From Patescibacteria group bacterium (GTDB lineage Bacteria; Patescibacteriota; Minisyncoccia; 2-02-FULL-40-12), in contig JBBTXZ010000005.1 of assembly GCA_038062015.1 (NCBI GenBank), forward strand, positions 24,215 through 88,214: a stretch of 64,000 nt of DNA, written 5' to 3'. This document shows, piece after piece, positions 4,401 to 63,883 of this stretch. Positions within the stretch are counted from its first letter, which is position 1; every line of letters starts with the position of its first letter. The translations under genes and the position numbers were made by a program. The notes beneath the pieces are model-generated. The model worked only from the letters and a program-made list of their open reading frames with translations, searched no databases and was not told the origin of the DNA.

Positions 4401-5026
4401 ATAAGGAACTGCATCATGGTGTTAAGTTAGACGTGGCGAGTATTCATTTTCACAATTGGCCCAAAGCCGACAAAAAGCTGATTGATGAAAAGTTGGAAAA
4501 AGAAATGGAATTAGTGAGAGAGATTGTAAGTCTGGGCTTGGCGGCAAGGAAAGACGCGGGAATTAAGGTGAGGCAACCGCTGGCTTCGCTTGAAGTTTCA
4601 AAGTTTCAAAGTTTCAAAGTTTCAGAAGAGTTATTGAATCTAATAAAAGAGGAAGTGAATGTGAAAGACATAGAATTTAAAAGTTTAAAGTTTAAAGAAA
4701 CTGACAAAGAAGAACTATCGGTTGTTTTGGACACTGAAATTTCGCCGGCTTTAAGAGCCGGGGGTTGGGTTAGAGAATTTATAAGAATAATCCAGGATGC
4801 CCGAAAGGATGTCGGTTATGAATATGATCAAAAAGTCAGGGCTTACTGGTTTACTGAAGACAAATCTTTGGCCGAAGCCATAAAAAGAGAAGAAAAATTC
4901 ATAGTTCAAAAAACGGTTTTGAAAGAACTTCGCCAGTCTAACCACGACCCGAAGTTTGCCTATGATGTTGAAAAAGTCTGGGAGTTGGAACCGGGCCGAA
5001 AAATTTGGCTGGGATTGAAAAAGTGA
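1415..5026 (+). CDS. ileS: Isoleucyl-tRNA synthetase (type 2, eukaryote-like) carrying an internal ~200-aa histidine-phosphatase-like domain insertion
   Basis: HIGH motif (PHIGH), KMSKS, WFDSG and the CPNCGG zinc knuckle. 1203 aa, longer than usual because of the inserted domain (see findings). Confidence 0.95.
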   Translation: MKPEFSLPRTEEEIQKFWEANKVFEKTLENRKRGKKFVFYEGPPTANGLPHIGHFLTRAFKDLFVRYKTMRGFFVPRRAGWDTHGLPVEIEVEKELGLKSKKEIEKYGIAKFNKKARESVWRYKGEWEKFSKRIGFWLDFDNPYITYANDYIETLWHIVKQFDKKKFLYQGHKVLPWCPRCGTTLSSHEVALGYESITEDSVYVKFKVTGYERSPIYLLAWTTTPWTLPGNVALAVGKDITYVKGFVPNKEEIEFYIFAKDQLPKINEILGEDLNIVTEFPGGELVGWEYEPLFEVKKLKSNKSYKIYPADFVNTEEGAGVVHTAVMYGEDDYQLGEKVGLPKHHTVDKEGKFTEDVPEFAGRFVKDAEKDVIAYLKNKNLLFKVEPYTHDYPFCWRCKTPLLYYATDSWFVKTTAVKKQLIANNKKINWIPPYIKEGRFGQWLKEVKDWAFSRDRYWGTPLPIWHCQIGRSKKLKVKSKNSDNNGCGNYLVIGSLEELEKHRYQKPNRYHIIRHAESTKNIEGREINSVKLESDKYDLTEKGINQARKLAKDLKNEKIDLIFSSPFLRAERTAGIIAEELGLKEKVDHRLKEIDHGSVCEGKDYFACIPKGQYPNKDFNTKFGPDGESRNDVRKRVFDFIKETESKYEDKNILIVSHGDPLWLMEGISKNLGEEELFSAKKNQILGIKDNAFKLIKFGEKRVLVFGNYPRDEFGNPDLHRPYIDEVLLKCPNCGGGTLSVPDSHAQRGEMKRVPEVIDVWFDSGAMPFASRPDFPADFITEGVDQTRGWFYTLLAVSTLLGKSNPYKNVISLGHVLDKDGKKMSKSLGNVIKPDYVIDKFGADISRWWFYGVNQAGESKSFREEELKEITNGFVRVIINSLRFWQLYKGSSKAKINFHDLKNKNSLNLLDRWLLSKWNSLVDLVTKSLDKYDATTASREIEKFVIEDLSNWWIRRSRDKFQVQQGASQEDLLRFVLLELSKLIAPFAPFLAEYLYKELHHGVKLDVASIHFHNWPKADKKLIDEKLEKEMELVREIVSLGLAARKDAGIKVRQPLASLEVSKFQSFKVSEELLNLIKEEVNVKDIEFKSLKFKETDKEELSVVLDTEISPALRAGGWVREFIRIIQDARKDVGYEYDQKVRAYWFTEDKSLAEAIKREEKFIVQKTVLKELRQSNHDPKFAYDVEKVWELEPGRKIWLGLKK

Positions 5027-10517: not shown

Positions 10518-11192
10518 ATGGCTATTCTTTATATTGTTGCCACGCCGATCGGCAATTTGAAAGATTTCACGACCCGTGCCATCGAAACCTTGAAAGAGGT
10601 TGATTTTATTTTAGCCGAAGATACTCGTGAAACCATTAAACTTTTAAACTTTTATACCATCAAGAAACCATTAATATCATACTTTCAGCATAGCCGACTT
10701 AGTAAGATTGAGTATATTTTGGATTTATTAAAACAGGGGAAAAGCCTGGCTTTGGTTTCTGATGCCGGCACGCCCGGAATAAATGATCCGGGCGGAAAAC
10801 TGGTTGCCGAGATTGTTAAAAGGTTTGGCGATTCCGTGAGAATAGTTCCTATCCCCGGGCCGAATGCGGCAATTACGGCATTAAGTATCTGTGGTTTAAA
10901 TGCTGACCGATTTATGTTTTTAGGCTATCTGCCTCATAAAAAGGGCCGACAAAAGTTTTTTACCGAAATCTTGAAATCACGATATCCCGTAATAATTTAT
11001 GAATCGCCCCATCGGATTTTAAAAACCCTGAATGAGCTAGACGGATTTGAAGAATTAAAAAACCGCGAAATTGTCGTCTGTCGCGAACTGACTAAAAAAT
11101 TCGAGACGATTTATCGCGGCACGATTTCCGAGGTTTTATTAAAAATTGAGAGAGGCATAGTAAAAGGGGAGTTTACTGTCGTTATAAAATGA
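10518..11192 (+). CDS. rsmI: 16S rRNA (cytidine1402-2'-O)-methyltransferase
   Basis: ILYIVATPIGNLKDFTTRAIETLKEVDFILAEDTR... tetrapyrrole-methylase fold typical of RsmI. ATG at 10518 preferred over the TTG at 10500. Confidence 0.85.
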   Translation: MAILYIVATPIGNLKDFTTRAIETLKEVDFILAEDTRETIKLLNFYTIKKPLISYFQHSRLSKIEYILDLLKQGKSLALVSDAGTPGINDPGGKLVAEIVKRFGDSVRIVPIPGPNAAITALSICGLNADRFMFLGYLPHKKGRQKFFTEILKSRYPVIIYESPHRILKTLNELDGFEELKNREIVVCRELTKKFETIYRGTISEVLLKIERGIVKGEFTVVIK

Positions 11193-11193
11193 T

Positions 11194-11229
11194 CCCTAAA
11201 TTTATGCTATAGCATAAATTTAGGGATAT
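11194..11229. promoter_or_regulatory. 36-bp perfect palindrome atccctaaatttatgctatagcataaatttagggat (terminator/operator) downstream of the PaaX-like gene
   Basis: Seen directly. A near-identical copy lies at 11800..11836 on the other side of the gene. Confidence 0.8.
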
Positions 11230-11783
11230 TATTCTAGATTGTATTTCTTTTTTAATTTAGTTTCACCGTCTATTTCGGTTATCTCGCCTAATTTTACAAA
11301 AGGTTTAACTTCAAAGAGTTTTAGTATAAACTCTACCTCGTTCTCTAATGGATAAGGATGAATCCAAACGCTTTTCTGGAACTGGTATAAGCCAAGCCCT
11401 TTTAGTTTTTCTCTTAATGCGTTAGCCCGACCTTTAAATTTATTAGGGATGTCAAACATAACAAAACGCCATTTGCCGTCCCATTTTTTCATTGGCCTGA
11501 TTTTTAATTTTTCAAGATCGTATCCAAGTATTTTCTTTTTTCCATTTTTGGATAATTCGACTTTCATACTGCCATCGGGATTTTCTTTTATAATGATAAG
11601 TTTTCGTTCTTTAAGAGCGTGGATTACTTTGCCGATTTTATTATTGTATTTTCTTTTGATGAATTTATTTTTATTTAAGGCACTGAAAATGTTTGGAGCC
11701 ATTGCTCCGGTGATAGTAATTAATCCAAGTAATCCAACTCCTATTAGTATTTTTTTGATCAGTTCTTTTCTATCCGGATTCAT
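11229..11783 (-). CDS. Membrane-anchored winged-helix + PaaX_C/Cas2-fold domain protein (putative autoregulator), paralog of 43635..44231
   Basis: N-terminal TM helix, a wHTH-like middle, and C-terminal WDGKWRFVMFDIP...RANALREKL..LG..QFQKSVW (Cas2/PaaX-C-like pattern). Bracketed by two near-identical palindromes. Confidence 0.5.
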   Translation of the reverse strand: MNPDRKELIKKILIGVGLLGLITITGAMAPNIFSALNKNKFIKRKYNNKIGKVIHALKERKLIIIKENPDGSMKVELSKNGKKKILGYDLEKLKIRPMKKWDGKWRFVMFDIPNKFKGRANALREKLKGLGLYQFQKSVWIHPYPLENEVEFILKLFEVKPFVKLGEITEIDGETKLKKKYNLE

Positions 11784-11799
11784 TGTTTGAATTATATCT

Positions 11800-11836
11800 C
11801 CATCCCTAAAATTATGCTATAGCATAATTTTAGGGA
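11800..11836. promoter_or_regulatory. Palindrome ccatccctaaaattatgctatagcataattttagggatgg upstream of the PaaX-like gene start (candidate operator)
   Basis: Seen directly, ~17 bp upstream of the start codon at 11783. Confidence 0.7.
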
Positions 11837-11942
11837 TGGAGAGGAACGGGGAATAATAATACGGGGAATAATAATTATGAGGATAATTATTTGATTATCA
11901 GCGACTTTATTTTTGAGTATATAGTTGATATGATTTTGTATT

Positions 11943-13439
11943 ATGGCCGGAAAATTTTCTATTACAACTGCGATACCGTATGTAAATGCCAAAGGGCATG
12001 TGGGTTTTGCCATGGAGTTGATTCAAGCTGATGTGCTTGCCCGATTTGAGCGGCTTAGAGGAAATAATGTTTTTTTCTTAACCGGAACAGATGAAAATGC
12101 TCTCAAAAATGTGCAGGCGGCGGAAAAAGCGAATAAACCAATTAGAGAATTTATCGATGAACACGCTAAAAGTTTCATTGAGCTTGCTAAATTGCTCAAT
12201 ATATCAAATGACGATTTTATAAGAACTACAGAAGGAAGGCACATAAAGGGGGCCCAGAAACTTTGGCGGGCCTGTGAAGCGGCCGGCGATATTTATAAGA
12301 AAAAATATAAAGGTTTGTATTGCGTCGGATGCGAGGAGTTTAAAACAGAAAAAGATTTAATAGACGGATTATGCCCCGAGCATAATACTAAACTCGAAGA
12401 AATCGAAGAAGAAAACTACTTTTTCAGATTGTCTAAGTATCAGGATAAAGTCGAGAAACTTATTTTTTCAGATGAGTTGCGAATTGTGCCGATAACCCGG
12501 AAGAACGAGGCCTTAAGTTTTATCCGTCAAGGATTGCAAGATTTCAGTATTTCTCGCAGCCGGGAACGAGCTAAAAATTGGGGGATTCCTGTTCCCGGGG
12601 ACGACAGTCAGATAATTTACGTGTGGTATGACGCGTTAACCTGGTTTATAAACGCTCTCGGGTATTCTGATAACGAAGAAAAGTTTAAATTGTGGTGGAG
12701 TGATCGCAACATAGATCTTATCGGCAAGGGGATAAATAGATTTCATACGATTTACTGGCCGGTGATGTTAATTTCCGCCGGTCTTCTTCCGCCCAAGGAA
12801 ATATATATTCACGGATACATAACCATTGGCGGCGAAAAAATATCCAAATCCCTCGGCAACACAATTGACCCAGTTGATTTAGTCGGAAAATACGGAGTAG
12901 AAATTGTTCGTTATTTTCTTTTGCGGGAAATTCCGTCAGACGGCGACGGTGATTTTTCTGTCAAAAAATTAGAGGCCCGCCACAATGCGGATTTAGCTAA
13001 TAATTTAGGGAATTTGGTTTCGCGGGTTGTCGCTTTGATAGAAAAGTTTTTCAGCGGCAGTTTTAACTACTCCCGAAGATTTGTTTTAAAAGAAGTTGAC
13101 GATAAAGTGATTGATATATGGAAAAAGTACAATGAAAACATAAATAATTTTAAGCTCCACATTGCTTTAGAAAATATTTTTTCTTTGGTTGATTTCGCTA
13201 ATTTATATATTGATGAGCATAAACCCTGGTCTTTGGGCGATAATCCGGAGCATCTGAATGAAGTTATGACAAATCTGATTGTGATTTTACTTAATGTGGC
13301 TTGGTTTTTAAAGCCGTTTCTGCCTGAAACTTCAAACAGGATTTTCGGTATTTTAGGCGCGGATAAAGATGGTAAATCGTGGGAAGAAAAACCGTTTCAG
13401 GTCAAACCGGAAATTTTATTTCCGAAAATAGAGCAATGA
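11943..13439 (+). CDS. metG: Methionyl-tRNA synthetase (short form, no C-terminal tRNA-binding domain)
   Basis: N-terminal ITTAIPYVNAKGHVG region, zinc knuckle CVGCEEF...CPEH, and KISKS (KMSKS) motif. Confidence 0.9.
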   Translation: MAGKFSITTAIPYVNAKGHVGFAMELIQADVLARFERLRGNNVFFLTGTDENALKNVQAAEKANKPIREFIDEHAKSFIELAKLLNISNDDFIRTTEGRHIKGAQKLWRACEAAGDIYKKKYKGLYCVGCEEFKTEKDLIDGLCPEHNTKLEEIEEENYFFRLSKYQDKVEKLIFSDELRIVPITRKNEALSFIRQGLQDFSISRSRERAKNWGIPVPGDDSQIIYVWYDALTWFINALGYSDNEEKFKLWWSDRNIDLIGKGINRFHTIYWPVMLISAGLLPPKEIYIHGYITIGGEKISKSLGNTIDPVDLVGKYGVEIVRYFLLREIPSDGDGDFSVKKLEARHNADLANNLGNLVSRVVALIEKFFSGSFNYSRRFVLKEVDDKVIDIWKKYNENINNFKLHIALENIFSLVDFANLYIDEHKPWSLGDNPEHLNEVMTNLIVILLNVAWFLKPFLPETSNRIFGILGADKDGKSWEEKPFQVKPEILFPKIEQ

Positions 13440-13565
13440 AATATAATCCTCAAAAAATTGAGAAGAAGTGGTCCCGATTTTGTCTCCGACAAAGTCGGAG
13501 CTATAAAATCGAGGATCCTCGATTTGTTGATTGTGCTTCGCGCAAAACAAATCGGGACAGAAATT
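13437..13565 (+). other. ~130-bp insertion at the metG/leuS junction: duplicated leuS 5' end plus a nested-hairpin structured element
   Basis: atgaaatataatcctcaaaaaattgagaagaagtgg at 13436 duplicates the true leuS start atgaaatataatccaaacaaaatagaacgaaaatgg at 13566. Between them: long-range stem gtcccgattt/aaatcgggac enclosing the hairpin ctccgac-aaa-gtcggag and the 20-bp palindrome aaatcgaggatcctcgattt. Confidence 0.7.
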
Positions 13566-15986
13566 ATGAAATATAATCCAAACAAAATAGAACGAAAATG
13601 GCAACGTTACTGGGAGAATAAAAAACTTTATCAAACTAAAGATAAAGTCAAAGGCAAGAAAAATTTTTATCATTTGGTGATGTTTCCTTATACTTCAGGC
13701 GATCTTCATATGGGACATTGGTATAATTATGCGCCATCAGACGTATATGCCCGTTTCAAGCGGATGCAGGGATTAAATGTAATGGCGCCGATCGGTTTTG
13801 ACGCTTTCGGGCTTCCGGCTGAAAATGCGGCCATCCAAAGAAATATCAATCCGGCTGATTGGACCAGACAAAATATCTCGTATATGACCAAGCAATTAAA
13901 AAGCATGGGCGCAATTTTTGACTGGTCGAGAAAAGTAGAAACAATTGACCCCGAATACTATAAATGGACCCAGTGGATATTTTTGAAGTTTTATGAAAAG
14001 GGTTTGGCTTATCGAGCTAAAACAAAAGTAAATTGGTGTCCTAAGGATAAAACTGTTTTGGCTAACGAGCAGGTCGTGGATAATTGCTGCGAAAGGTGTG
14101 GGACTCAGGTGGTTCAGAAAGAATTAGTTCAGTGGATGTTTAAAATCACAAAATATGCCGATCAGCTTATTGATGATTTGGAAAAACTTGATTGGCCTGA
14201 AATAACTAAAACCGCCCAGAAGAATTGGATAGGAAGATCGCAGGGAGCAGTTATAAAATTTCAAGTTGAAAATTCAAAGAATTATGTAGATGTTTTTACG
14301 ACTAGGCCTGATACTATTTTCGGCGCTACTTTTATGGTTTTAGCGCCGGAGCATGAATTGGTTAAGAAAATTACTAAAGATCAATTTTTAGGCCAAGTAA
14401 ATAATTATCTTGAGAATGCAAAAAAGAAAACAGAGCTTGAAAGATTGGCTGAAGTAAAAGAAAAGACAGGGGTTTTTACTGGTGCTTATGCTTTCAATCC
14501 GGCAACCAAAGAGAAAATTCCGATTTGGATTTCTGATTTTGTTTTGCCTCATTACGGTACTGGCGCGATTATGGCTGTTCCGGCCCATGATGAAAGGGAT
14601 TTTGAGTTTGCAAAGAAGTTTAATTTATCCATTAGGGAAGTTATTGGCGGCGGCGATATTTTAAAAGAAGCGTACGAAGGCGAAGGTAAATTGATTAATT
14701 CGGGGAAGTTTTCCGGAATGGATTCTGAAAAAGCCAAGTGGGAAATTACAGAATTTGTCGGCGGAAAGAAAATGATTTCTTATCGGCTGCACGACTGGAT
14801 AATTTCTCGTCAGCGGTATTGGGGGGCGCCGATCCCAATGGTTTATTGCCAGAAATGTGATTGGCAGCCAGTTTCAGAAAAAGATTTGCCGGTTTTACTG
14901 CCTAAAATAAGAGATTACAAACCCCCTGGAACTGGAGAGCCGCCTTTAGTTAAAGCTAAAGATTGGCTCAATGTAAAATGTCCAAGATGTTTCGGTCAAG
15001 CTCGGCGTGAGACGGATACCATGGATGCTTTCGTTGATTCGGCTTGGTATTTTCTGCGATATAGCGATCCAAAAAACAAAAAACAATTTGCTTCAAAAGA
15101 CAAATTGGAGTCTTGGCTTCCGGTAGATATGTATATCGGCGGCCAGGAGCACGCCACTAAACACCTGCTTTATGCCAGATTTATAACCAAAGTTTTGAAT
15201 GACTCTGGTTATTTGAGTTTTGACGAGCCGTTTAAGACTATGAGGCATCAAGGTCTGATTTTGGGCCTTGACGGGAATAAAATGTCTAAATCAAGAGGCA
15301 ATATAGTTGATCCCGATGAAATGGTTAAGAAATTTGGTTCAGATTCTGTTCGAATGTATCTTTGTTTTATGGGGCCTTATGAAAACGGCGGACCTTGGGA
15401 TCCGAAAGCGATTGTTGGAGTATTCAGATTCCTAAACCGAGTTTGGAATCTGATAAAACCCAAATTCCAAAATCCAAATGACAAATCAATTCCAAATTCC
15501 AAAATCCAAAACAAAGAATTAGATAAAGTTTTCAATAAAGCGATTAAAAAAGTTGGCGAAGATATAGAAAACTTAAGATTTAACACAGCGGTGAGCGAAT
15601 TGATGAAGTTACTTAACGAAATAGAAGATTTTATTAATAAAGGTTTTACGTTTCAAGTTTCAAGCTTCAAGGTCTTTTTGAAATTGCTGGCGCCATTCGC
15701 GCCGCATTTAGCTGAAGAGCTTTGGCATCAGATTGGGAACAAAAAATCAATCCATTTAGAAAAGTGGCCGGAGTATAACCCGAAACTTATTGAAGATGAG
15801 ACAGTTGATTTGGTGATTCAAGTTAATGGCCGGACTCGGGATGTAATCAAAGCCCCGCATGATTTAACCGAGCCGCAAGCCCGCGAATTGGCTCTAGCTT
15901 CGGAAAAAATCAAAAAATACGTTTCCGGAAAAGAAATCAAAAAATTTATTTACATCCCCAACAAAATCGCTAATATAGTAATTTAA
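13566..15986 (+). CDS. leuS: Leucyl-tRNA synthetase
   Basis: HMGH (HIGH) motif and KMSKS. Start placed at MKYNPNKIERKWQ (the track ORF begins upstream inside the insertion). Carries an in-frame 'ccaaaatccaaa' repeat at ~15459..15511. Confidence 0.9.
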   Translation: MKYNPNKIERKWQRYWENKKLYQTKDKVKGKKNFYHLVMFPYTSGDLHMGHWYNYAPSDVYARFKRMQGLNVMAPIGFDAFGLPAENAAIQRNINPADWTRQNISYMTKQLKSMGAIFDWSRKVETIDPEYYKWTQWIFLKFYEKGLAYRAKTKVNWCPKDKTVLANEQVVDNCCERCGTQVVQKELVQWMFKITKYADQLIDDLEKLDWPEITKTAQKNWIGRSQGAVIKFQVENSKNYVDVFTTRPDTIFGATFMVLAPEHELVKKITKDQFLGQVNNYLENAKKKTELERLAEVKEKTGVFTGAYAFNPATKEKIPIWISDFVLPHYGTGAIMAVPAHDERDFEFAKKFNLSIREVIGGGDILKEAYEGEGKLINSGKFSGMDSEKAKWEITEFVGGKKMISYRLHDWIISRQRYWGAPIPMVYCQKCDWQPVSEKDLPVLLPKIRDYKPPGTGEPPLVKAKDWLNVKCPRCFGQARRETDTMDAFVDSAWYFLRYSDPKNKKQFASKDKLESWLPVDMYIGGQEHATKHLLYARFITKVLNDSGYLSFDEPFKTMRHQGLILGLDGNKMSKSRGNIVDPDEMVKKFGSDSVRMYLCFMGPYENGGPWDPKAIVGVFRFLNRVWNLIKPKFQNPNDKSIPNSKIQNKELDKVFNKAIKKVGEDIENLRFNTAVSELMKLLNEIEDFINKGFTFQVSSFKVFLKLLAPFAPHLAEELWHQIGNKKSIHLEKWPEYNPKLIEDETVDLVIQVNGRTRDVIKAPHDLTEPQARELALASEKIKKYVSGKEIKKFIYIPNKIANIVI

Positions 15987-22728: not shown

Positions 22729-23622
22729 ATGTATCCAAATCTGCGAATAATTATTTTAGGGGTATTAACTCTATTTTTGGTTTTGACCTTTGTGGTTGAA
22801 TTCCGTGGCGAATACGGACTTAAAGTCTATTTTTTTGATGTCGGCCAGGGCGATTCAATTTTTATTGAAACAGAAGAAAAGAAACAAATTCTGATTGACG
22901 GCGGGCCGGATAACAAAGTGGTTCAAAAATTATCAGAAGCAATGCCATTTTGGGACCGAACCATAGACTTGGTTATTCTGACTCATCCGGACAAGGACCA
23001 TATCTTAGGTTTAATCGAAGTCTTGAAAAGATACCGAGTTAAGGGAATCATTGAAACTGGAATCGAATGCGGGAAAGCGGAATGTGTAGTCTGGAAAGAG
23101 TTGAAAGAAAAAGAAAAAGCGCCGGTTATTTTCGTGAAACTCGGCGACTCGTTAATACTTAACGAAAATACTAAAATTTTAATTTTAAATCCTTTCGCCG
23201 ATATGGCCGGAGAAAAAATTTCAAAAGCCAATAATTCTTCTATCGTGGCTAAATTAATCTACGATGGATACAGCATTTTATTGACCGGCGATATTGAGAA
23301 ACATATTGAAGAAAAGCTGGTTCTGGCCGGAGTAGACATTGATTCTGATTATCTTAAAATTCCGCATCATGGTTCTAAGACCTCAACCACCGAAGAATTT
23401 TTGGAAAAAATTTCCCCGCTTTCGGCTTTTATCTCTCTCGGCAAGAATAATTCTTACGGCCATCCGCATGATGAAGTTACCGGCCGTCTTGAAAAAAGAA
23501 ATATAAAATATTATCGTACTGATGAACTGGGAACTATTTTATTGAGTTGCAAGTTTAATGAACCGTGTTCAGTAAAATTCCAAATTCCAAATTCCAAAAT
23601 CCAAATAACAAATGACAAATAA
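22729..23622 (+). CDS. MBL-fold metallo-hydrolase (the ComEC C-terminal beta-lactamase domain as a separate gene)
   Basis: VYFFDVGQGDSIFIE and LVILTHPDKDHILG motifs. The 3' end runs into a 'ccaaaatccaaa' repeat. Confidence 0.8.
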   Translation: MYPNLRIIILGVLTLFLVLTFVVEFRGEYGLKVYFFDVGQGDSIFIETEEKKQILIDGGPDNKVVQKLSEAMPFWDRTIDLVILTHPDKDHILGLIEVLKRYRVKGIIETGIECGKAECVVWKELKEKEKAPVIFVKLGDSLILNENTKILILNPFADMAGEKISKANNSSIVAKLIYDGYSILLTGDIEKHIEEKLVLAGVDIDSDYLKIPHHGSKTSTTEEFLEKISPLSAFISLGKNNSYGHPHDEVTGRLEKRNIKYYRTDELGTILLSCKFNEPCSVKFQIPNSKIQITNDK

Positions 23623-23653
23623 AATCCAAAATCCAAATTCCAAAATAAATAAG

Positions 23654-24259
23654 ATGAAGAAATTACTAGCCGACCCCAAACATCCAAGGGAAGAAAAGAC
23701 CCTTGTTTTAATCAAGCCAGATGCCGTGAAAAGGGGGTTGGTCGGCGAAATAATCAAACGTTTTGAAAGCCGGGGACTTAAGATTATTGGTCTGAAAATG
23801 GTTCACGGCGCGCCAAAAGATTTTGACAAGCATTATCCTAAAAGCAAGGGATGGATTGCTAATTTAGGCAAAAGAACTATAGAAACCTACAAAAAATACA
23901 GTTACAGCTTGAAAAACGATTTTGGCACCGATGATCCGTTTAGAATCGGCAAAATTTTCCGTAACTGGCTGATTGATTTTATGGCTTCCGGGCCGGTGGT
24001 CAAGATTTTGATTGAAGGGGCTCATGCCATTGATGTGGTCAGAAAAATTGTCGGCGACACCCAGCCTCATTTTGCCCTGACCGGAACTATCCGCGGCGAT
24101 TTTAGTGTTGACTCGGCCGGCTCGGCGAATAAGTCAAAGCGGGCCGTTCATAATTTAGTTCACGCTTCGGGCGATAAAAATGAAGTCCGAAACGAAATAA
24201 TACTCTGGTTTAATCCCGAAGAAATCTGCGACTACAAGAGAGTGGAAGAGTTGATTTAA
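23654..24259 (+). CDS. ndk: Nucleoside-diphosphate kinase (with an internal insertion)
   Basis: TLVLIKPDAVKRGLVGEII... and active-site NLVHASGD. ATG at 23654. Confidence 0.8.
   Translation: MKKLLADPKHPREEKTLVLIKPDAVKRGLVGEIIKRFESRGLKIIGLKMVHGAPKDFDKHYPKSKGWIANLGKRTIETYKKYSYSLKNDFGTDDPFRIGKIFRNWLIDFMASGPVVKILIEGAHAIDVVRKIVGDTQPHFALTGTIRGDFSVDSAGSANKSKRAVHNLVHASGDKNEVRNEIILWFNPEEICDYKRVEELI
24203..24259. repeat. 56-bp direct repeat, copy 1 (the ndk 3' end)
   Basis: tctggtttaatcccgaagaaatctgcgactacaagagagtggaagagttgatttaa is repeated at 24998..25053. Confidence 0.9.
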
Positions 24260-24264
24260 TTGTA

Positions 24265-24675
24265 TTATTGCTGGATTTGAGTTATTGTTGGAGTTTTAAG
24301 TCCGGGTATTTTTTTTGATACATCTTCTTTAGCTAGAATTTTTGTTGCTAATTTAATAATTAAACTTAAATCAGGGCCGAATTTTGTGCCAATTTCGTCT
24401 AGGATTATCATTTCGTTAAGCAAATCTTCAAATTCTTCACTCAACTGGTCTCTAATCTTTTTATCTAAGGCATATTCAATTTTAATAAAACAATTACAGC
24501 CATCTTTTAGAGGAGTTTTTCCTTTCTGAAGAGCATCAATCACATCTAAAACCAGAAGAGCTGTTTCTCTTTCTATACCGGCAGTGTCTTTGCCTTCTTT
24601 TATCAAATTTAAAATCAACCGAAGCCGTTTTTGGATAATTTGATTATGTAGATTGTTTTTTTTCATTTTTACCAT
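24265..24675 (-). CDS. Hypothetical protein (second gene of the inserted two-gene cassette)
   Basis: ORF 136 aa, no recognisable motif. Its start overlaps the upstream ORF's end (operon-like). Confidence 0.4.
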   Translation of the reverse strand: MVKMKKNNLHNQIIQKRLRLILNLIKEGKDTAGIERETALLVLDVIDALQKGKTPLKDGCNCFIKIEYALDKKIRDQLSEEFEDLLNEMIILDEIGTKFGPDLSLIIKLATKILAKEDVSKKIPGLKTPTITQIQQ

Positions 24676-24683
24676 GATAATAA

Positions 24684-24959
24684 CTACTTTAAAATTATTT
24701 TTATGTCTTTGTGAATTACCCTGCCGGCTTTAACCACTACATGCCATACTTCAACTAACTTATTATTCTTAAATATTTTTACCATTTGCGATATGCCTTT
24801 ATCTTTTCCGAGAATTCCTCTTCTGACAATCTTAACAGAATAATTATCTATATTAACATAATCGATTTTTCTTAGCAATTTTGTGCCTCGGAAAGCGGTG
24901 ATTGATAATCGAGTTACAAGTTCTAAAATTTTAATAGTCCCTGAAGCAGGCATTGGCAT
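24684..24959 (-). CDS. Hypothetical small protein (first gene of the inserted cassette; possible toxin-antitoxin or defence pair)
   Basis: ORF 91 aa, basic, no recognisable motif. Confidence 0.4.
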   Translation of the reverse strand: MPMPASGTIKILELVTRLSITAFRGTKLLRKIDYVNIDNYSVKIVRRGILGKDKGISQMVKIFKNNKLVEVWHVVVKAGRVIHKDIKIILK

Positions 24960-24997
24960 AAGTAAATTATACGAAGTATTAAGAGATGGTCAAAGAT

Positions 24998-25053
24998 TCT
25001 GGTTTAATCCCGAAGAAATCTGCGACTACAAGAGAGTGGAAGAGTTGATTTAA
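24998..25053. repeat. 56-bp direct repeat, copy 2 (duplicate of the ndk 3' end), followed by the original ndk terminator
   Basis: Identical to 24203..24259. Followed by aaaaaccgctttaagcggttttttgg. Confidence 0.9.
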
Positions 25054-25056
25054 AAC

Positions 25057-25084
25057 CAAAAAACCGCTTTAAGCGGTTTTTTGG
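25057..25084. terminator. Bidirectional intrinsic terminator aaaaaccgctttaagcggttttttgg
   Basis: Stem-loop flanked by A-run and T-run. Confidence 0.8.
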
Positions 25085-25091
25085 TTTTAGT

Positions 25092-25161
25092 CGGGCTGCC
25101 GGGATTTGCACCCGGGCTAAATCGACCCCATCGACTCGTGCTGCTGCTACACCACAGCCCG
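25092..25161 (-). tRNA. tRNA-Pro(GGG)-like cloverleaf with non-canonical D-loop and T-loop (could be a tRNA-like element)
   Basis: Manual fold on the minus strand: acceptor CGGGCUG/CAGCCCG (7 bp), D-stem GUGU/GCAC, anticodon stem AGUCG/CGAUU with loop AUGGGGU (U33, GGG, G37), T-arm CCGGG-UGCAAAU-CCCGG. Lacks G18G19 and has G55. Begins 6 nt after the rpmB stop. Confidence 0.45.
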
Positions 25162-26632: not shown

Positions 26633-27100
26633 ATGAGACAAGGACAAGCACCTAAAAGACCAAACGAACCAGACATTAAATACCAAAGCGCTCTAGTCGC
26701 TAAATTTATTAATTACATAATGAGAAGCGGCCGCAAGACGATTGCCCGCCGGATTGTTTATGATTCTCTGGAGAGCGCCGAAAAAAAATTGGGCAAAAGC
26801 CCTTTGGAAATTTTAGAGCAAGTCATAAAAAATGCCGGCCCGGATCAGGAATTAAGAAGCCGCCGGATCGGCGGGGCCAATTATCAGATTCCTTATCCGG
26901 TTAAGCAAGACCGGAGAATTACTTTAGCTTTACGTTGGATAATAGATGCGGCTAAAGCGAAAAAAGGGAAGCCGATGGATGATAAACTAACCCAGGAACT
27001 GATTGATGCTTTTAATAATACCGGCTTGGCAGTTAAGAAAAAGATAGATACTCACAGAATGGCGGATGCGAATAAAGCTTTTGCTCACTTTGCTTGGTGA
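26633..27100 (+). CDS. rpsG: 30S ribosomal protein S7
   Basis: Conserved S7 sequence pattern and gene order rpsL-rpsG-fusA. Confidence 0.92.
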   Translation: MRQGQAPKRPNEPDIKYQSALVAKFINYIMRSGRKTIARRIVYDSLESAEKKLGKSPLEILEQVIKNAGPDQELRSRRIGGANYQIPYPVKQDRRITLALRWIIDAAKAKKGKPMDDKLTQELIDAFNNTGLAVKKKIDTHRMADANKAFAHFAW

Positions 27101-27305
27101 CAGAGAGAATATAGAACACAGAATATAGAATATAGGATATAGGATATAGAATAAGAATGACCAATTCCTTTAAGGATTTGATAGTTTGGCAAAAGTCTAA
27201 ACAACTAGCCGTAGAAATATATAAACTAATTTAGAAGAAATAATGAAAATATTAAACAACTTTGTTAAGAAGTTATCTTAGTTTTAATTCTATATTCTAA
27301 ATTCT
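27101..27305. repeat. ~200-bp spacer bounded by inverted 'tagaat'-type repeat arrays (MITE-like element)
   Basis: Left end gaatatagaatataggatataggatatagaat. Right end ttctatattctaaattctat (inverse). A compact version lies at 39181..39258. Confidence 0.5.
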
Positions 27306-34149: not shown

Positions 34150-34226
34150 CATCTACAAAATTACAAATCATTTACGAATATACAAATTTGTATATTTGTA
34201 GGGATTTGTAAATTCGTAGATATTTA

Positions 34227-36216: not shown

Positions 36217-36292
36217 TACTACGAAGTACGAATCAGTCCGAATGTACGAATTCGTATATTCGTAAAGATTCGTAAATTCGTAGTTTAACATT

Positions 36293-36921: not shown

Positions 36922-36997
36922 ATCTACGAATTTACCAATTCATTACAAATATACAAATATTTGTATATTTGTAGAGATTTGTAATTTTGTAGATAAA

Positions 36998-39183: not shown

Positions 39184-39258
39184 AGATAGAACATAGAATA
39201 TAGAATATAGAATGTAGAATACGATCCTATGTTCTATATTCTAAATTCTACATTCTAA

Positions 39259-40521: not shown

Positions 40522-40567
40522 CCAATTTCTTCTCTGAATTTTTTAGACAAATAATCTTTAGAGAGTA
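40522..40567 (+). repeat. ~46-bp intergenic repeat (ccaatttcttctctgaattttttagacaaataatc...agagag), copy 1 of 3
   Basis: Also at 42833..42879 (inverted) and 63838..63883 (direct). Confidence 0.85.
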
Positions 40568-40790: not shown

Positions 40791-41213
40791 ATGGAAAATA
40801 AACTAAAAGAAACAACGAGTGCTGGTGGTATAGTGATAAATCAGAAAGGAGATATTCTGGTGGTTAGTCAACATGGTACCTCTTGGTCATTGCCCAAGGG
40901 TCATGTTGAAGAAGGAGAAAATTATTTGACTACAGCAAAGCGTGAAATATATGAAGAGTCAGGCATTAAAGACCTCAAATTTATAAAAGAACTTGGCAGT
41001 TATCAACGAAATAAGATAAGTTTAGATGGAGGAGATGATCCTTCAGAAATAAAAACGATTCATATGTTTTTGTTTAAAACAGCTGATTCTAGTTTAAAGC
41101 CTCAAGATCCTATGAACCCAGAAGCACGATGGGTTAACAAAAATGATGTGGGGAAATTGCTCACTCATACTAAAGATAGAGAATTCTTTGAAAGAGTAAA
41201 AGCGGAATTATAA
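40791..41213 (+). CDS. NUDIX hydrolase
   Basis: Nudix box GHVEEGENYLTTAKREIYEESGI. Confidence 0.85.
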   Translation: MENKLKETTSAGGIVINQKGDILVVSQHGTSWSLPKGHVEEGENYLTTAKREIYEESGIKDLKFIKELGSYQRNKISLDGGDDPSEIKTIHMFLFKTADSSLKPQDPMNPEARWVNKNDVGKLLTHTKDREFFERVKAEL

Positions 41214-43572: not shown

Positions 43573-43589
43573 TCTAAATTAAACTTATA

Positions 43590-43625
43590 TTACAATTGTA
43601 ATATAAGTTTAATTTTTGATTTAAT
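43590..43625. promoter_or_regulatory. Perfect palindrome aaacttatattacaattgtaatataagttt upstream of the PaaX-like paralog 2 (candidate operator)
   Basis: Seen directly, ~10 bp before the ATG at 43635. Confidence 0.75.
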
Positions 43626-43634
43626 GGAATTTTA

Positions 43635-44231
43635 ATGAAACTTGGTGAATTAAGGGTCAAAAAAGAAAGCTTTACTTTAAAAGTTCTTAAAGCCGTAGCA
43701 ATTGGAGGGATGGCATTAATTGCTACTTCAAATAAACGCTTTTGGCTTGATTTTTATTTAAACTTTAATAAAGAGTTAAATAGATATAAAACACAGAAAG
43801 AAAGAAGTAAATTGTATCATGCCCTTAGATACTTAAGAGGGAGAAAATTTGTAGATGTTGCAGAAAGACCAGATGGTTTATTGGTAAAAATCAGCACTAA
43901 AGGGTATGAAGTAGTTAAATTTTTTGAATCCATTGAGAAAATGAATTTAATAAAGCCTACCAAATGGGACGGTAAATTCCGATTAGTTATTTTTGATATA
44001 CCTGCAAAAAAGCAGGGAGCGCGCATTGTTTTTATACAAAAGCTAAAAGAAATGAATTTTTATATGCTTCAAAAAAGTATTTGGGTCCATCCTTACGATT
44101 GTACTAATGAAATTGCAGTTCTTAAAAAATTATTTGAAATAGAACCTTATGTTAAAATAGTCGTTGCAGATGCAATAGAAGAACCTTATAAGATTTTAAA
44201 GAATTTTAATTTATTTAAAAGAATGTTGTAG
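43635..44231 (+). CDS. Membrane-anchored wHTH + PaaX_C/Cas2-fold domain protein, paralog of 11229..11783, inserted between adk and map
   Basis: KWDGKFRLVIFDIPAKKQGARIVFIQKLKEMNFYMLQKSIWVHPY aligns with WDGKWRFVMFDIPNKFKGRANALREKLKGLGLYQFQKSVWIHPY of the other copy. Confidence 0.5.
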   Translation: MKLGELRVKKESFTLKVLKAVAIGGMALIATSNKRFWLDFYLNFNKELNRYKTQKERSKLYHALRYLRGRKFVDVAERPDGLLVKISTKGYEVVKFFESIEKMNLIKPTKWDGKFRLVIFDIPAKKQGARIVFIQKLKEMNFYMLQKSIWVHPYDCTNEIAVLKKLFEIEPYVKIVVADAIEEPYKILKNFNLFKRML

Positions 44232-44262
44232 ATATATTACAATTGTAATATATCTTTAATTT
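44232..44262. promoter_or_regulatory. Palindrome agatatattacaattgtaatatatct downstream of paralog 2 (terminator / second operator copy)
   Basis: Seen directly. Same tatattacaattgtaatata core as the upstream palindrome. Confidence 0.7.
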
Positions 44263-45039
44263 GTGGGAATTATTACTAAATCAGAAAAAGAAATAGCAAT
44301 AATGAAAGAAGGTGGAAATATTTTGGCAGAGATTCTTAAAAAACTCGCCACAGAAATAAAAATTGGAATAGCCACTATGGAATTAGAGAATCTAGCCCGC
44401 CAATTAATAGAAAAAGCCAGAGCAGAGTCGGCCTTTTTGGGATTTAAAAATTATCCAGCAGTTTTGTGTACTTCTGTTAATGAGGAAGTAGTCCATGCTA
44501 AACCTTCTTATAGAGTATTAAAGGAAGGCGATTTACTCAAAATTGATATGGGAATTCTTTATAGAGGATTTTATACTGATTCGGCGATTACTCTACTTGT
44601 AACAGATTGGGCTATTTTTAAGATAGAACAACAAGAAGAGTATTTTCAGAAAAATAAACTGATTAAAACTACAAAAGAATGTCTTGAAATCGGGATTTCT
44701 CAAGCAAAAATCGGTAATACAATCGGCGATATTTCTTTTGCTATTCAAAATCACGCCGAAAAAAATGGTTTTTCGGTGATTCAGGATTTAGTCGGCCACG
44801 GCATCGGCCGCGAACTTCACGAAGAACCCGAGGTGCCGAATTTCGGCGCTCCGGGTAAAGGTCCGAAACTAAAAGAAGGAATGGTAATTGCCATTGAGCC
44901 GATGCTCTCGGCCGGTTCTCATGAAGTTATAGAAGATAAAAAAACTTTGGCTTGGATGACAAAAGACAGTTCTTTATCGGCTCATTTCGAACATACTATA
45001 GCAATAATAAAAAGTGGTCCGTTGGTGTTAACTAAGTAG
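44263..45039 (+). CDS. map: Type I methionine aminopeptidase (GTG start)
   Basis: MetAP pattern with metal ligands (D...D...H...E...E context: LVGHGIGRELHEEP). Confidence 0.9.
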   Translation: MGIITKSEKEIAIMKEGGNILAEILKKLATEIKIGIATMELENLARQLIEKARAESAFLGFKNYPAVLCTSVNEEVVHAKPSYRVLKEGDLLKIDMGILYRGFYTDSAITLLVTDWAIFKIEQQEEYFQKNKLIKTTKECLEIGISQAKIGNTIGDISFAIQNHAEKNGFSVIQDLVGHGIGRELHEEPEVPNFGAPGKGPKLKEGMVIAIEPMLSAGSHEVIEDKKTLAWMTKDSSLSAHFEHTIAIIKSGPLVLTK

Positions 45040-63235: not shown

Positions 63236-63841
63236 TTAATATTCAACGCCTCGCTTTACCGGTCCAAATTTATATTTGATTTCCTTCATTTCTGTGGCGA
63301 TGTCGGCTAGGTATATGAATTTTTGGGGCGCGTTTCGGCCGGTAAGAATGATGTCAGTGCCTTGGGGCGCCTTTTTGAGTATTTTTAAGATATCGTTTTC
63401 AGAAATCAGTTTCAAACTGATGGCGACATTGACTTCGTCTAAAATTACAAGATCATATTTTTTGCTCAAAATTATTTTTTCAGCGAGCTTCAGAGTTTTT
63501 TGAGCCGCTTTTTTGTGGACTGAACGCGGAAGCCGGTCACCCATGATGCCGACAAAGCCTTTACCGCCTTTGATTATTTGAAAATTATAGAATTTTTTTA
63601 ATTCTTCTGTTAATTTTTTATTTTTGCTTTGTAATTTTGATTTTTGATTTTTAATTTTTGATATCAGGTAATCTTCTCCCGATACCCATGGTCCCTTGAT
63701 GAACTGGATCATTATAACTTTCTTGCCTTCGCCCAAAGCCCGGATGGCCTGGCCCAAAGCCGCAGTAGTCTTACCTTTGCCGTTACCGGTATAAACGATA
63801 ATCATAAATGTTTGTTCAGGGAAACCGGCCCGCAACACCAA
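63236..63841 (-). CDS. cobO: Cob(I)alamin adenosyltransferase (CobA/CobO/BtuR type)
   Basis: P-loop-like IIVYTGNGKGKTTAALG and overall BtuR pattern. Confidence 0.75.
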   Translation of the reverse strand: MVLRAGFPEQTFMIIVYTGNGKGKTTAALGQAIRALGEGKKVIMIQFIKGPWVSGEDYLISKIKNQKSKLQSKNKKLTEELKKFYNFQIIKGGKGFVGIMGDRLPRSVHKKAAQKTLKLAEKIILSKKYDLVILDEVNVAISLKLISENDILKILKKAPQGTDIILTGRNAPQKFIYLADIATEMKEIKYKFGPVKRGVEY

Positions 63842-63883
63842 TTTCTTCTCTGAATTTTTTAGACAAATAATCTTCAGAGAGTT
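63838..63883 (+). repeat. ~46-bp intergenic repeat, copy 3, followed by a ~70-bp element homologous to 41290..41360
   Basis: ccaatttcttctctgaattttttagacaaataatcttcagagag, then ...aggaggccgaagtagcacggtaagtca (compare 41329 aggaggccgaaattgcacggtttgtca). Confidence 0.8.

Follow-up and report, generated by a model that had tools for sequence, protein, structure and literature searches.

Insertion-duplication (Campbell-type) integration and homology-facilitated illegitimate recombination (HFIR) occur in naturally transformable bacteria. Cis-mobilisable elements (CIMEs) and small genomic islands carry att repeats that regenerate the 3′ end of a gene, and many genomic islands bring replacement tRNA or gene ends with them. 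Toxin-first type II toxin–antitoxin (TA) systems, such as hicAB and higBA, have two small, co-oriented genes that are tightly spaced or overlapping, and a promoter of their own. Here we describe a locus that can be set beside each of these systems. It lies in a 64,000-nucleotide stretch of DNA (hereafter the window) from a Patescibacteria group bacterium (assembly GCA_038062015.1, contig JBBTXZ010000005.1, positions 24,215 to 88,214), in which a cassette of two small minus-strand genes stands between ndk, the gene for nucleoside diphosphate kinase, and a second copy of the end of ndk. The kinds involved are known ones, an addiction-like cassette and a repeat-flanked small variable segment, built here from two new protein families. 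Evenly poised, in our judgement, is the reading that 794 bp (24204–24997 or 24260–25053) represent a horizontally acquired, self-expressed two-gene addiction-type module together with a second ndk end, placed by insertion-duplication recombination of the host.

A reading made earlier from the letters of the window alone (the sequence-only reading) had claimed a 56-bp duplication of the ndk end. This is borne out: positions 24204–24259 and 24998–25053 form an exact direct repeat with 0 mismatches, for which the chance expectation in 64 kb is about 4e-24. Directly 3′ of the second copy lies a perfect 19+19 hairpin with a folding free energy (dG) of −24 to −26 kcal/mol and a z-score of about −7 on both strands. 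An Rfam scan of the region matched only the tRNA. The features of the locus, in order along the window, are:

23654–24259, plus strand: ndk, intact (PF00334, E = 1.7e-36); the longest open reading frame (ORF) runs from 23612.
24204–24259, plus strand: repeat copy 1, the final 56 bp of ndk including the TAA stop, joined to the ancestral upstream flank.
24260–24997, minus strand: the unique inserted segment of 738 bp, with a GC content of about 30% against about 40% in the flanks; absent from the relatives L012–L015.
24998–25053, plus strand: repeat copy 2, the orphan ndk 3′ end, joined to the ancestral downstream flank.
25051–25089, no strand assigned: the ancestral bidirectional terminator hairpin, common to ndk and tRNA-Pro/L28; conserved in L013.
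25090–25161, minus strand: tRNA-Pro(GGG), a conserved neighbour that marks the empty site in relatives, followed by an L28-like gene.

To place this arrangement, the window was compared with four species-level relatives (L012–L015), which share the gene order comEC, MBL-domain gene, ndk, tRNA-Pro, L28, M50 protease and S12. Their Ndk proteins are 82–87% identical to that of the window over residues 1–201. The site is empty in all four: after the ndk stop come only a short terminator (absent from L015) and tRNA-Pro, and the hairpin of L013 is nearly the same as that of the window. The alignment to the window is continuous up to 24259 and resumes at 24998, so that copy 1 belongs to the left ancestral flank and copy 2 to the right one. 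The empty sites imply that 794 bp, made up of 738 unique bp and one repeat copy, were added, and on this comparison the segment at the 3′ end of ndk is an insertion. They also supply the uninterrupted ndk–terminator junction that the sequence-only reading had proposed to look for in related genomes and, together with the hairpin, uphold its view that copy 2 runs into the presumed original ndk terminator. The structure itself recurs base for base in L001, an independent single-sample assembly of 6 kb from sample H51 of the Hainich aquifer. No terminator separates ndk from the cassette any longer, so that ndk transcripts are expected to continue, antisense to the two genes, as far as the hairpin at 25051.

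The insert holds only two small ORFs, neither with a recombinase, integrase or transposase domain, and a promoter:

24966–24993, minus strand: cassette promoter, TTGACC–16 nt–TATAAT, matching 11 of the 12 consensus positions; the best sigma-70-like promoter in the region.
24684–24959, minus strand: upstream cassette gene, 91 aa, isoelectric point (pI) 10.6, a putative toxin; N-terminal helix and five-stranded antiparallel sheet (predicted); family without a known match.
24265–24666, minus strand: downstream cassette gene, 133 aa, a putative antitoxin or immunity partner; all-helical (predicted); family without a known match.

The downstream frame encodes 136 aa from its first ATG at 24675; with the start at 24666 that homologues and the NCBI call use, the product has 133 aa. 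The gene converges on ndk, the two stops being 5 nt apart. The two ORFs had been described as overlapping; in the window they are in fact separated by a gap of 8–17 nt, and an overlap of 4–14 nt is found in several homologous loci. Six nucleotides separate the −10 box (24966–24971) from the start codon of the 91-aa gene, which suggests that the cassette mRNA is leaderless. The sequences further suggest that the cassette is transcribed without a leader from its own promoter wherever it is located. A −10-like hexamer that ends 6–9 nt before the ATG of the 91-aa gene, with no Shine-Dalgarno sequence, is seen at many cassette loci (the window, L006, L019, L024 and others).

Searches of Pfam, NCBIfam, PADLOC and PHROGs with both proteins and all family members gave nothing above noise. 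The best domain match, to DUF3969 in 3 of 34 distant partner homologues (E = 2.6e-4), was treated as noise, and a PDB sequence-profile search with the 91-aa family returned only PDCD5-like noise. The 91-aa protein is predicted to form an N-terminal helix packed on a five-stranded antiparallel sheet (predicted local distance difference test score, pLDDT, 89.8). Its partner is predicted as a six-helix protein (pLDDT 88.2) with only generic helical matches, and neither predicted structure matches a solved fold. The absence of recognisable domains noted in the sequence-only reading is thus confirmed, and the profile and structure searches it had proposed for both proteins matched no known family or solved fold. 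All members of the 91-aa family are very basic (median pI 11); residues R46, R47, G51, S57 and H83 are conserved, and D53, Q58, W72 and H73 nearly so. With a pI of 8.5 the partner is not acidic, and neither a DNA-binding domain nor a Pfam domain was recognised in it. An identity of the partner as a LAGLIDADG homing endonuclease, raised by a borderline I-CreI profile match (i-Evalue 0.01–0.3) limited to residues 73–152, was rejected because the match covers non-catalytic C-terminal helices without the LAGLIDADG core and is at chance level, and because the model is all-helical.

Both families are very rare. The 91-aa family comprises 24 clusters in a collection of 5.8 billion sequences, and the partner family 33 representatives (E < 1e-3) among 1.84 billion; the cluster names of distant partner homologues are all ‘hypothetical’. 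At every complete 91-aa locus, a partner of 127–144 aa lies immediately downstream and co-oriented, at a spacing of −14 to +17 nt and often with an overlap of 4–14 nt. Neither gene has a paralogue elsewhere in the window. Looking for the same cassette in other genomes, as had been proposed, recovered the pair in at least 10 unrelated genomic contexts. These include ndk/tRNA-Pro, sites upstream of mraZ and of hicBA-leuS, sites after a histidine kinase, sufBD, H+-pyrophosphatase and atpG, and a site downstream of Phd/PIN, on host contigs with a GC content from 33% to 54%. The 91-aa family had no match in a viral contig collection, and neither protein had a tblastn match in plasmids, which leaves a phage or plasmid origin unsupported.

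Flanking duplications were also sought at the other cassette sites, and they recur in two further independent contexts. In L009 (7828–8851), the pair directly follows a HisKA/HATPase kinase gene and is itself followed by an orphan 108–115 bp of the kinase 3′ region, with 93% identity between the copies and a spacing of 909 bp. The same arrangement is found at the orthologous kinase in L016 (2781–3788; repeat of at least 81 bp, 91% identity, the contig ending within the repeat) and in L023 (1–950). In L024, a different organism and a different site, the pair is bracketed by a 39-bp repeat (36/39 identical) upstream of hicBA. The repeats at the three sites, namely the ndk end, the kinase end and the region upstream of hicB, are unrelated in sequence and measure 56, about 108–115 and 39 bp. 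Their distance to the genes varies as well: on the upstream side it is 38, 180 and up to 46 nt, and on the downstream side between 5 and 29 nt. The lack of a shared repeat sequence and the variable lengths and distances argue against a site-specific att core. No inverted repeats were seen at the insert ends, and no end motif is common to the cassette loci. A transposase-type target duplication of fixed length is excluded by these features, and the long, variable duplications and the missing inverted repeats, transposase and conserved ends set the cassette apart from transposons and insertion sequences. The duplication may be read as the footprint of how a cassette without a recombinase moves. 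The kinase-site copies differ in 9 codons, 6 of them synonymously, which hints weakly at an origin in two functional alleles rather than in the decay of a fresh duplicate; the ndk copies are identical and hence uninformative on allele origin.

The minimal substrate for RecA pairing is about 25–30 bp, and all three repeat lengths exceed roughly 30 bp. Recombinational insertion-duplication is the most likely mechanism, rather than site-specific integration, because host flanks are duplicated, each copy is joined to one ancestral flank, the repeats exceed the minimal RecA substrate, and neither an enzyme nor defined ends are present. The cassette resembles known insertion-duplication in just these respects and in its host lineage, which is competent and recombination-proficient. 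Classical HFIR yields insertion-deletions, whereas the ndk cassette, known here from sequence alone, shows a duplication. Genes for competence and homologous recombination are retained in Patescibacteria (PMC12455944), and in the window comEC is found just upstream of ndk; a summary of HFIR and of repeat-flanked small variable segments is given in PMC2884548. The description of the locus as a small integrative cassette that regenerates the 3′ end of its target therefore stands as far as an insertion at the ndk 3′ end is meant. ‘Integrative’ in the site-specific sense is unsupported, as no integrase is present and no sequence or length is common to the repeats of the three sites.

In the insertion-duplication reading, incoming DNA in which the cassette adjoined ndk-end homology would have recombined with a cassette-free ndk–terminator junction, either by a Campbell-like single crossover of a circle or by a one-sided homologous event with an illegitimate join during transformation. 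The product would be an intact ndk, the cassette, and an orphan ndk end fused to the original terminator. The module encodes no recombinase, and host recombination probably keeps it mobile. A crossover between the 56-bp repeats would delete the cassette precisely, restore the ndk–terminator junction and release a 794-bp circle, which could re-enter any genome with the same ndk end. Such excision and re-entry would account for close relatives without the cassette as well as for the youthfulness of the repeats. Both the recombination route and the excision are steps that we infer. Unrelated inserts in the window are likewise bracketed by duplicated gene ends, at the start of leuS and in a 168-bp repeat at the window start. 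Duplicated ends around unrelated cargo favour a host-level process filtered by selection over an activity of the two proteins, and they favour a filter under which, in compact genomes, only insertions that regenerate the interrupted gene survive.

The age of the repeat complicates this picture. Two further genomes, L002 and L003, lie at roughly the same distance from the window as the cassette-free L013 (81–88% nucleotide identity in flanking genes), and their cassette is about 19% diverged from that of the window (synonymous divergence, dS, 0.79). The probability of 0/56 repeat differences is about 3e-3 at 10% divergence and 1e-4 at 15%. Set against the cassette divergence of about 19%, the identity of the copies means that the repeat is much younger than the residence of the cassette at the site, or has been homogenised; judged on these numbers, the window repeat is young or homogenised. 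A similar pattern is found at the kinase site, where the cassette and the kinase body are only 70–73% identical among L009, L016 and L023. There, the repeat copies are 91–93% identical within each genome and 64–83% between genomes, and the L023 orphan carries L023-specific bases. The repeats would thus either be renewed by repeated loss and re-insertion within populations or be homogenised by gene conversion (concerted evolution). L002 and L003 are identical to each other from M50 through the cassette and 69 nt into ndk, then differ at 26 of 121 positions (L003 1452–1572, L002 5104–5224), and are then identical again. To judge by this mosaic, the 121-bp patch is an import from an unsampled relative, which implies that short-patch recombination occurs at the ndk locus. 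A later exchange of the cassette is hinted at by dS between the window and L003 (0.79 for the cassette, 1.56 for ndk), a comparison that was not relied on, as the numbers are small and ndk is saturated.

Several observations weigh against insertion-duplication of an addiction-type module. In L002 and L003, the cassette occupies the same ndk junction, but the orphan ndk copy and the hairpin are missing and tRNA-Pro abuts the 5′ end of the cassette; this would reflect either a deletion there or a later origin of the repeat in the window lineage. At least six other cassette loci have no flanking repeat above background. The within-genome repeat identity (91–100%) exceeds that between genomes (64–83%), which needs gene conversion or repeated re-insertion as an added assumption. 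Among the fetched loci, no circular form and no contig with a terminal overlap was found, and no same-species empty-site allele was seen. The Campbell route needs ndk-end sequence on the incoming DNA, and would better explain spread among relatives than the first arrival at ndk. On the side of function, neither protein resembles a known toxin, antitoxin or defence protein by sequence or fold, and the partner has neither the acidity nor a recognised DNA-binding domain.

The contrast with L002 and L003 can be turned into a different history. The cassette may have been resident, without a repeat, in a common ancestor with these two, and a 92-bp segment of ndk end plus hairpin may have been added later from the allele of a cassette-free relative by HFIR. 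Both lineages do share the same cassette–ndk junction, the cassette is as diverged (81% nucleotide identity) as the flanking genes, and the 0/56 differences have a probability of about 1e-4 to 3e-3 if the repeat is as old as 10–15% divergence; the 121-bp mosaic patch between L002 and L003 points to short-patch recombination at the locus. This history is nevertheless unlikely, since the cassette-free L013 is as close to the window as L003, since it requires an illegitimate join exactly upstream of the promoter, and since the duplications at two other, unrelated sites argue that duplication accompanies insertion. We consider it improbable that the locus is a CIME-like element carrying a replacement ndk 3′ end, with the 56-bp repeats as attL and attR of a tyrosine or serine integrase encoded elsewhere. 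Like CIMEs, the cassette has direct repeats of its target's 3′ end that bracket it exactly, an intact, regenerated target and no internal integrase; a tRNA gene lies 36 nt away, and the same family is repeat-bracketed at other sites. It differs from them in having no common att core, a size of only 0.74 kb and no cognate integrase identified. The insert encodes no recombinase, the repeats share no sequence (56, about 108–115 or more, and 39 bp), gene distances vary, the tRNA is not duplicated, and L002 and L003 have no att-like repeat.

It is more doubtful still that the 91-aa and 133-aa proteins form a minimal new self-mobilising element, one that would insert next to or into gene ends with long, variable target duplications (39 to more than 100 bp) while keeping the host gene intact. 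The part of this proposal in which cycles of excision and re-insertion keep the repeats homogeneous appears just as doubtful. Flanking duplications do recur with this cargo in unrelated genomes, both proteins have no known fold, residues R46, R47, S57, H73 and H83 are conserved, and a weak resemblance (i-Evalue 0.01) links the partner profile to the C-terminal helices of I-CreI. That resemblance does not extend to the LAGLIDADG catalytic core, however, and is no better than chance, and terminal inverted repeats or conserved ends are absent. The duplication length is variable, most loci show no duplication, and the bracketing of unrelated window cargo by duplicated gene ends points to a host-level process. 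The least credible account, to which we give very little weight, is an assembly artefact merging cassette-bearing and cassette-free strains, or an empty site and a free circle. It could draw on the exactness of the repeat, on 56 being k+1 for a de Bruijn assembly with k = 55, and on the origin of the metagenome-assembled genome (MAG) and L001 in the same aquifer well series. Two assemblies, the 105-kb MAG contig and the 6-kb single-sample contig, nonetheless give the same path. The junction between cassette end and repeat start must exist in the reads either way, and the imperfect repeats (91–93%) in L009, L016 and L024 cannot be k-mer artefacts.

Returning to the cargo of the inserted module, this is most likely an addiction-type pair in which a basic 91-aa toxin would be held in check by a 133-aa helical neutraliser. 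This assignment draws on the pattern of decay, because the basic partner is lost or truncated first, as expected of a toxin. In L002 and L003, the 91-aa gene has an in-frame deletion of residues 14–68 (L003 853–963, L002 about 4505–4615) with tRNA-Pro directly upstream, and the partner is intact; the ratio dN/dS (omega) of the partner between the window and L003 is 0.14, indicating purifying selection. In L008 (148–551), the 91-aa gene is gone and the partner frameshifted, with tRNA-Val directly upstream. The neighbours of the cassette include other TA modules, namely Phd/PIN and HicAB. The toxin–antitoxin or mini-defence pair guessed at in the sequence-only reading is thus still a reasonable conjecture. 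The cassette thus resembles type II TA systems in its gene layout, patchy distribution and TA-pair neighbours, and in the earlier loss of one partner. In contrast to those systems, its proteins match no known toxin superfamily (RelE/ParE, MazF, VapC, HicA, Doc and others). Type II antitoxins carry a DNA-binding domain of the ribbon-helix-helix (RHH), helix-turn-helix (HTH), AbrB or Phd kind, and none is recognised in the cassette partner.

The view that long repeats of this type recur in the window holds for leuS and for the 168-bp repeat. At leuS (region 13436–13601), it is the 5′ end that is present twice: an orphan start (MKYNPQKIEKKW) overlaps the metG stop at 13436–13471, and the real start (MKYNPNKIERKW) lies at 13567. 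Between the two starts is a highly structured single-copy element of about 95 nt (dG −45, z −7.2) with terminal inverted repeats TCCCGATTTTGT...ACAAATCGGGA, and the orphan leuS peptide is identical to the LeuRS N-terminus of L024. In the 168-bp direct repeat (267–434 and 825–992, 98% identical), what is duplicated is the promoter of a minus-strand HTH gene together with its 5′ end; the gene itself runs beyond the window start. The copies are separated by about 360 bp of unique, AT-rich DNA that includes a 37-aa ORF, and bases 793–828 are a 78% copy of the 3′ end of a neighbouring 173-aa membrane-protein gene (1019–1054). The layout of this region (267–1054), X-R-X′-insert-R, is as expected after single-crossover integration.

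Two further pairs of 33–36 bp (11192/11802 and 43586/44233) are of a different kind, being perfect palindromes that flank PaaX-like genes. Each of two PaaX_M genes (Cas2-like domain; 11229–11783, minus strand, and 43635–44231, plus strand) lies between two copies of its own palindrome, ATCCCTAAATTTATGCTATAGCATAAATTTAGGGAT at 11192 and 11802 and TATATTACAATTGTAATATA at 43586 and 44233 (regions 11192–11837 and 43586–44265). Two changes distinguish the copies of the first palindrome, and as they compensate each other it stays perfect. These palindromes may be operator sites or insertion scars of another type of small cassette. A 45-bp segment is also found twice with 98% identity, at 40522–40566 right after the rplO stop and at 63838–63882 across the start and upstream region of a cobA/btuR-like gene. 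The latter gene adjoins a class II ribonucleotide reductase, and rplO is separated from the presumed secY by a NUDIX gene (40791–41213). Short AT-rich tandem motifs (CCAAAAT/CCAAATT, ATAGAAT/ATAGGAT and TTTGTA/TTCGTA) recur in intergenic regions just upstream of genes, including ndk (23575–23651, 15455–15510, 27097–27160, 39186–39221, 34178–34222, 36224–36286 and 36951–36995), and may be promoter-associated elements.

If the insertion-duplication reading is correct, the ndk cassette would show how the ultra-compact genomes of Patescibacteria, which have almost no intergenic space, gain selfish or accessory genes and spare essential ones. Insertion would bring or create a spare gene end, and the resulting repeats would make the gain reversible. 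Repeats that are alike within genomes and divergent between them, at two unrelated target genes, are a testable sign of gene conversion or cassette cycling. The cassette also defines two new small-protein families. They invariably occur as a pair, their folds are predicted with confidence yet remain unmatched, and they are candidate partners in a new toxin/immunity or defence system.

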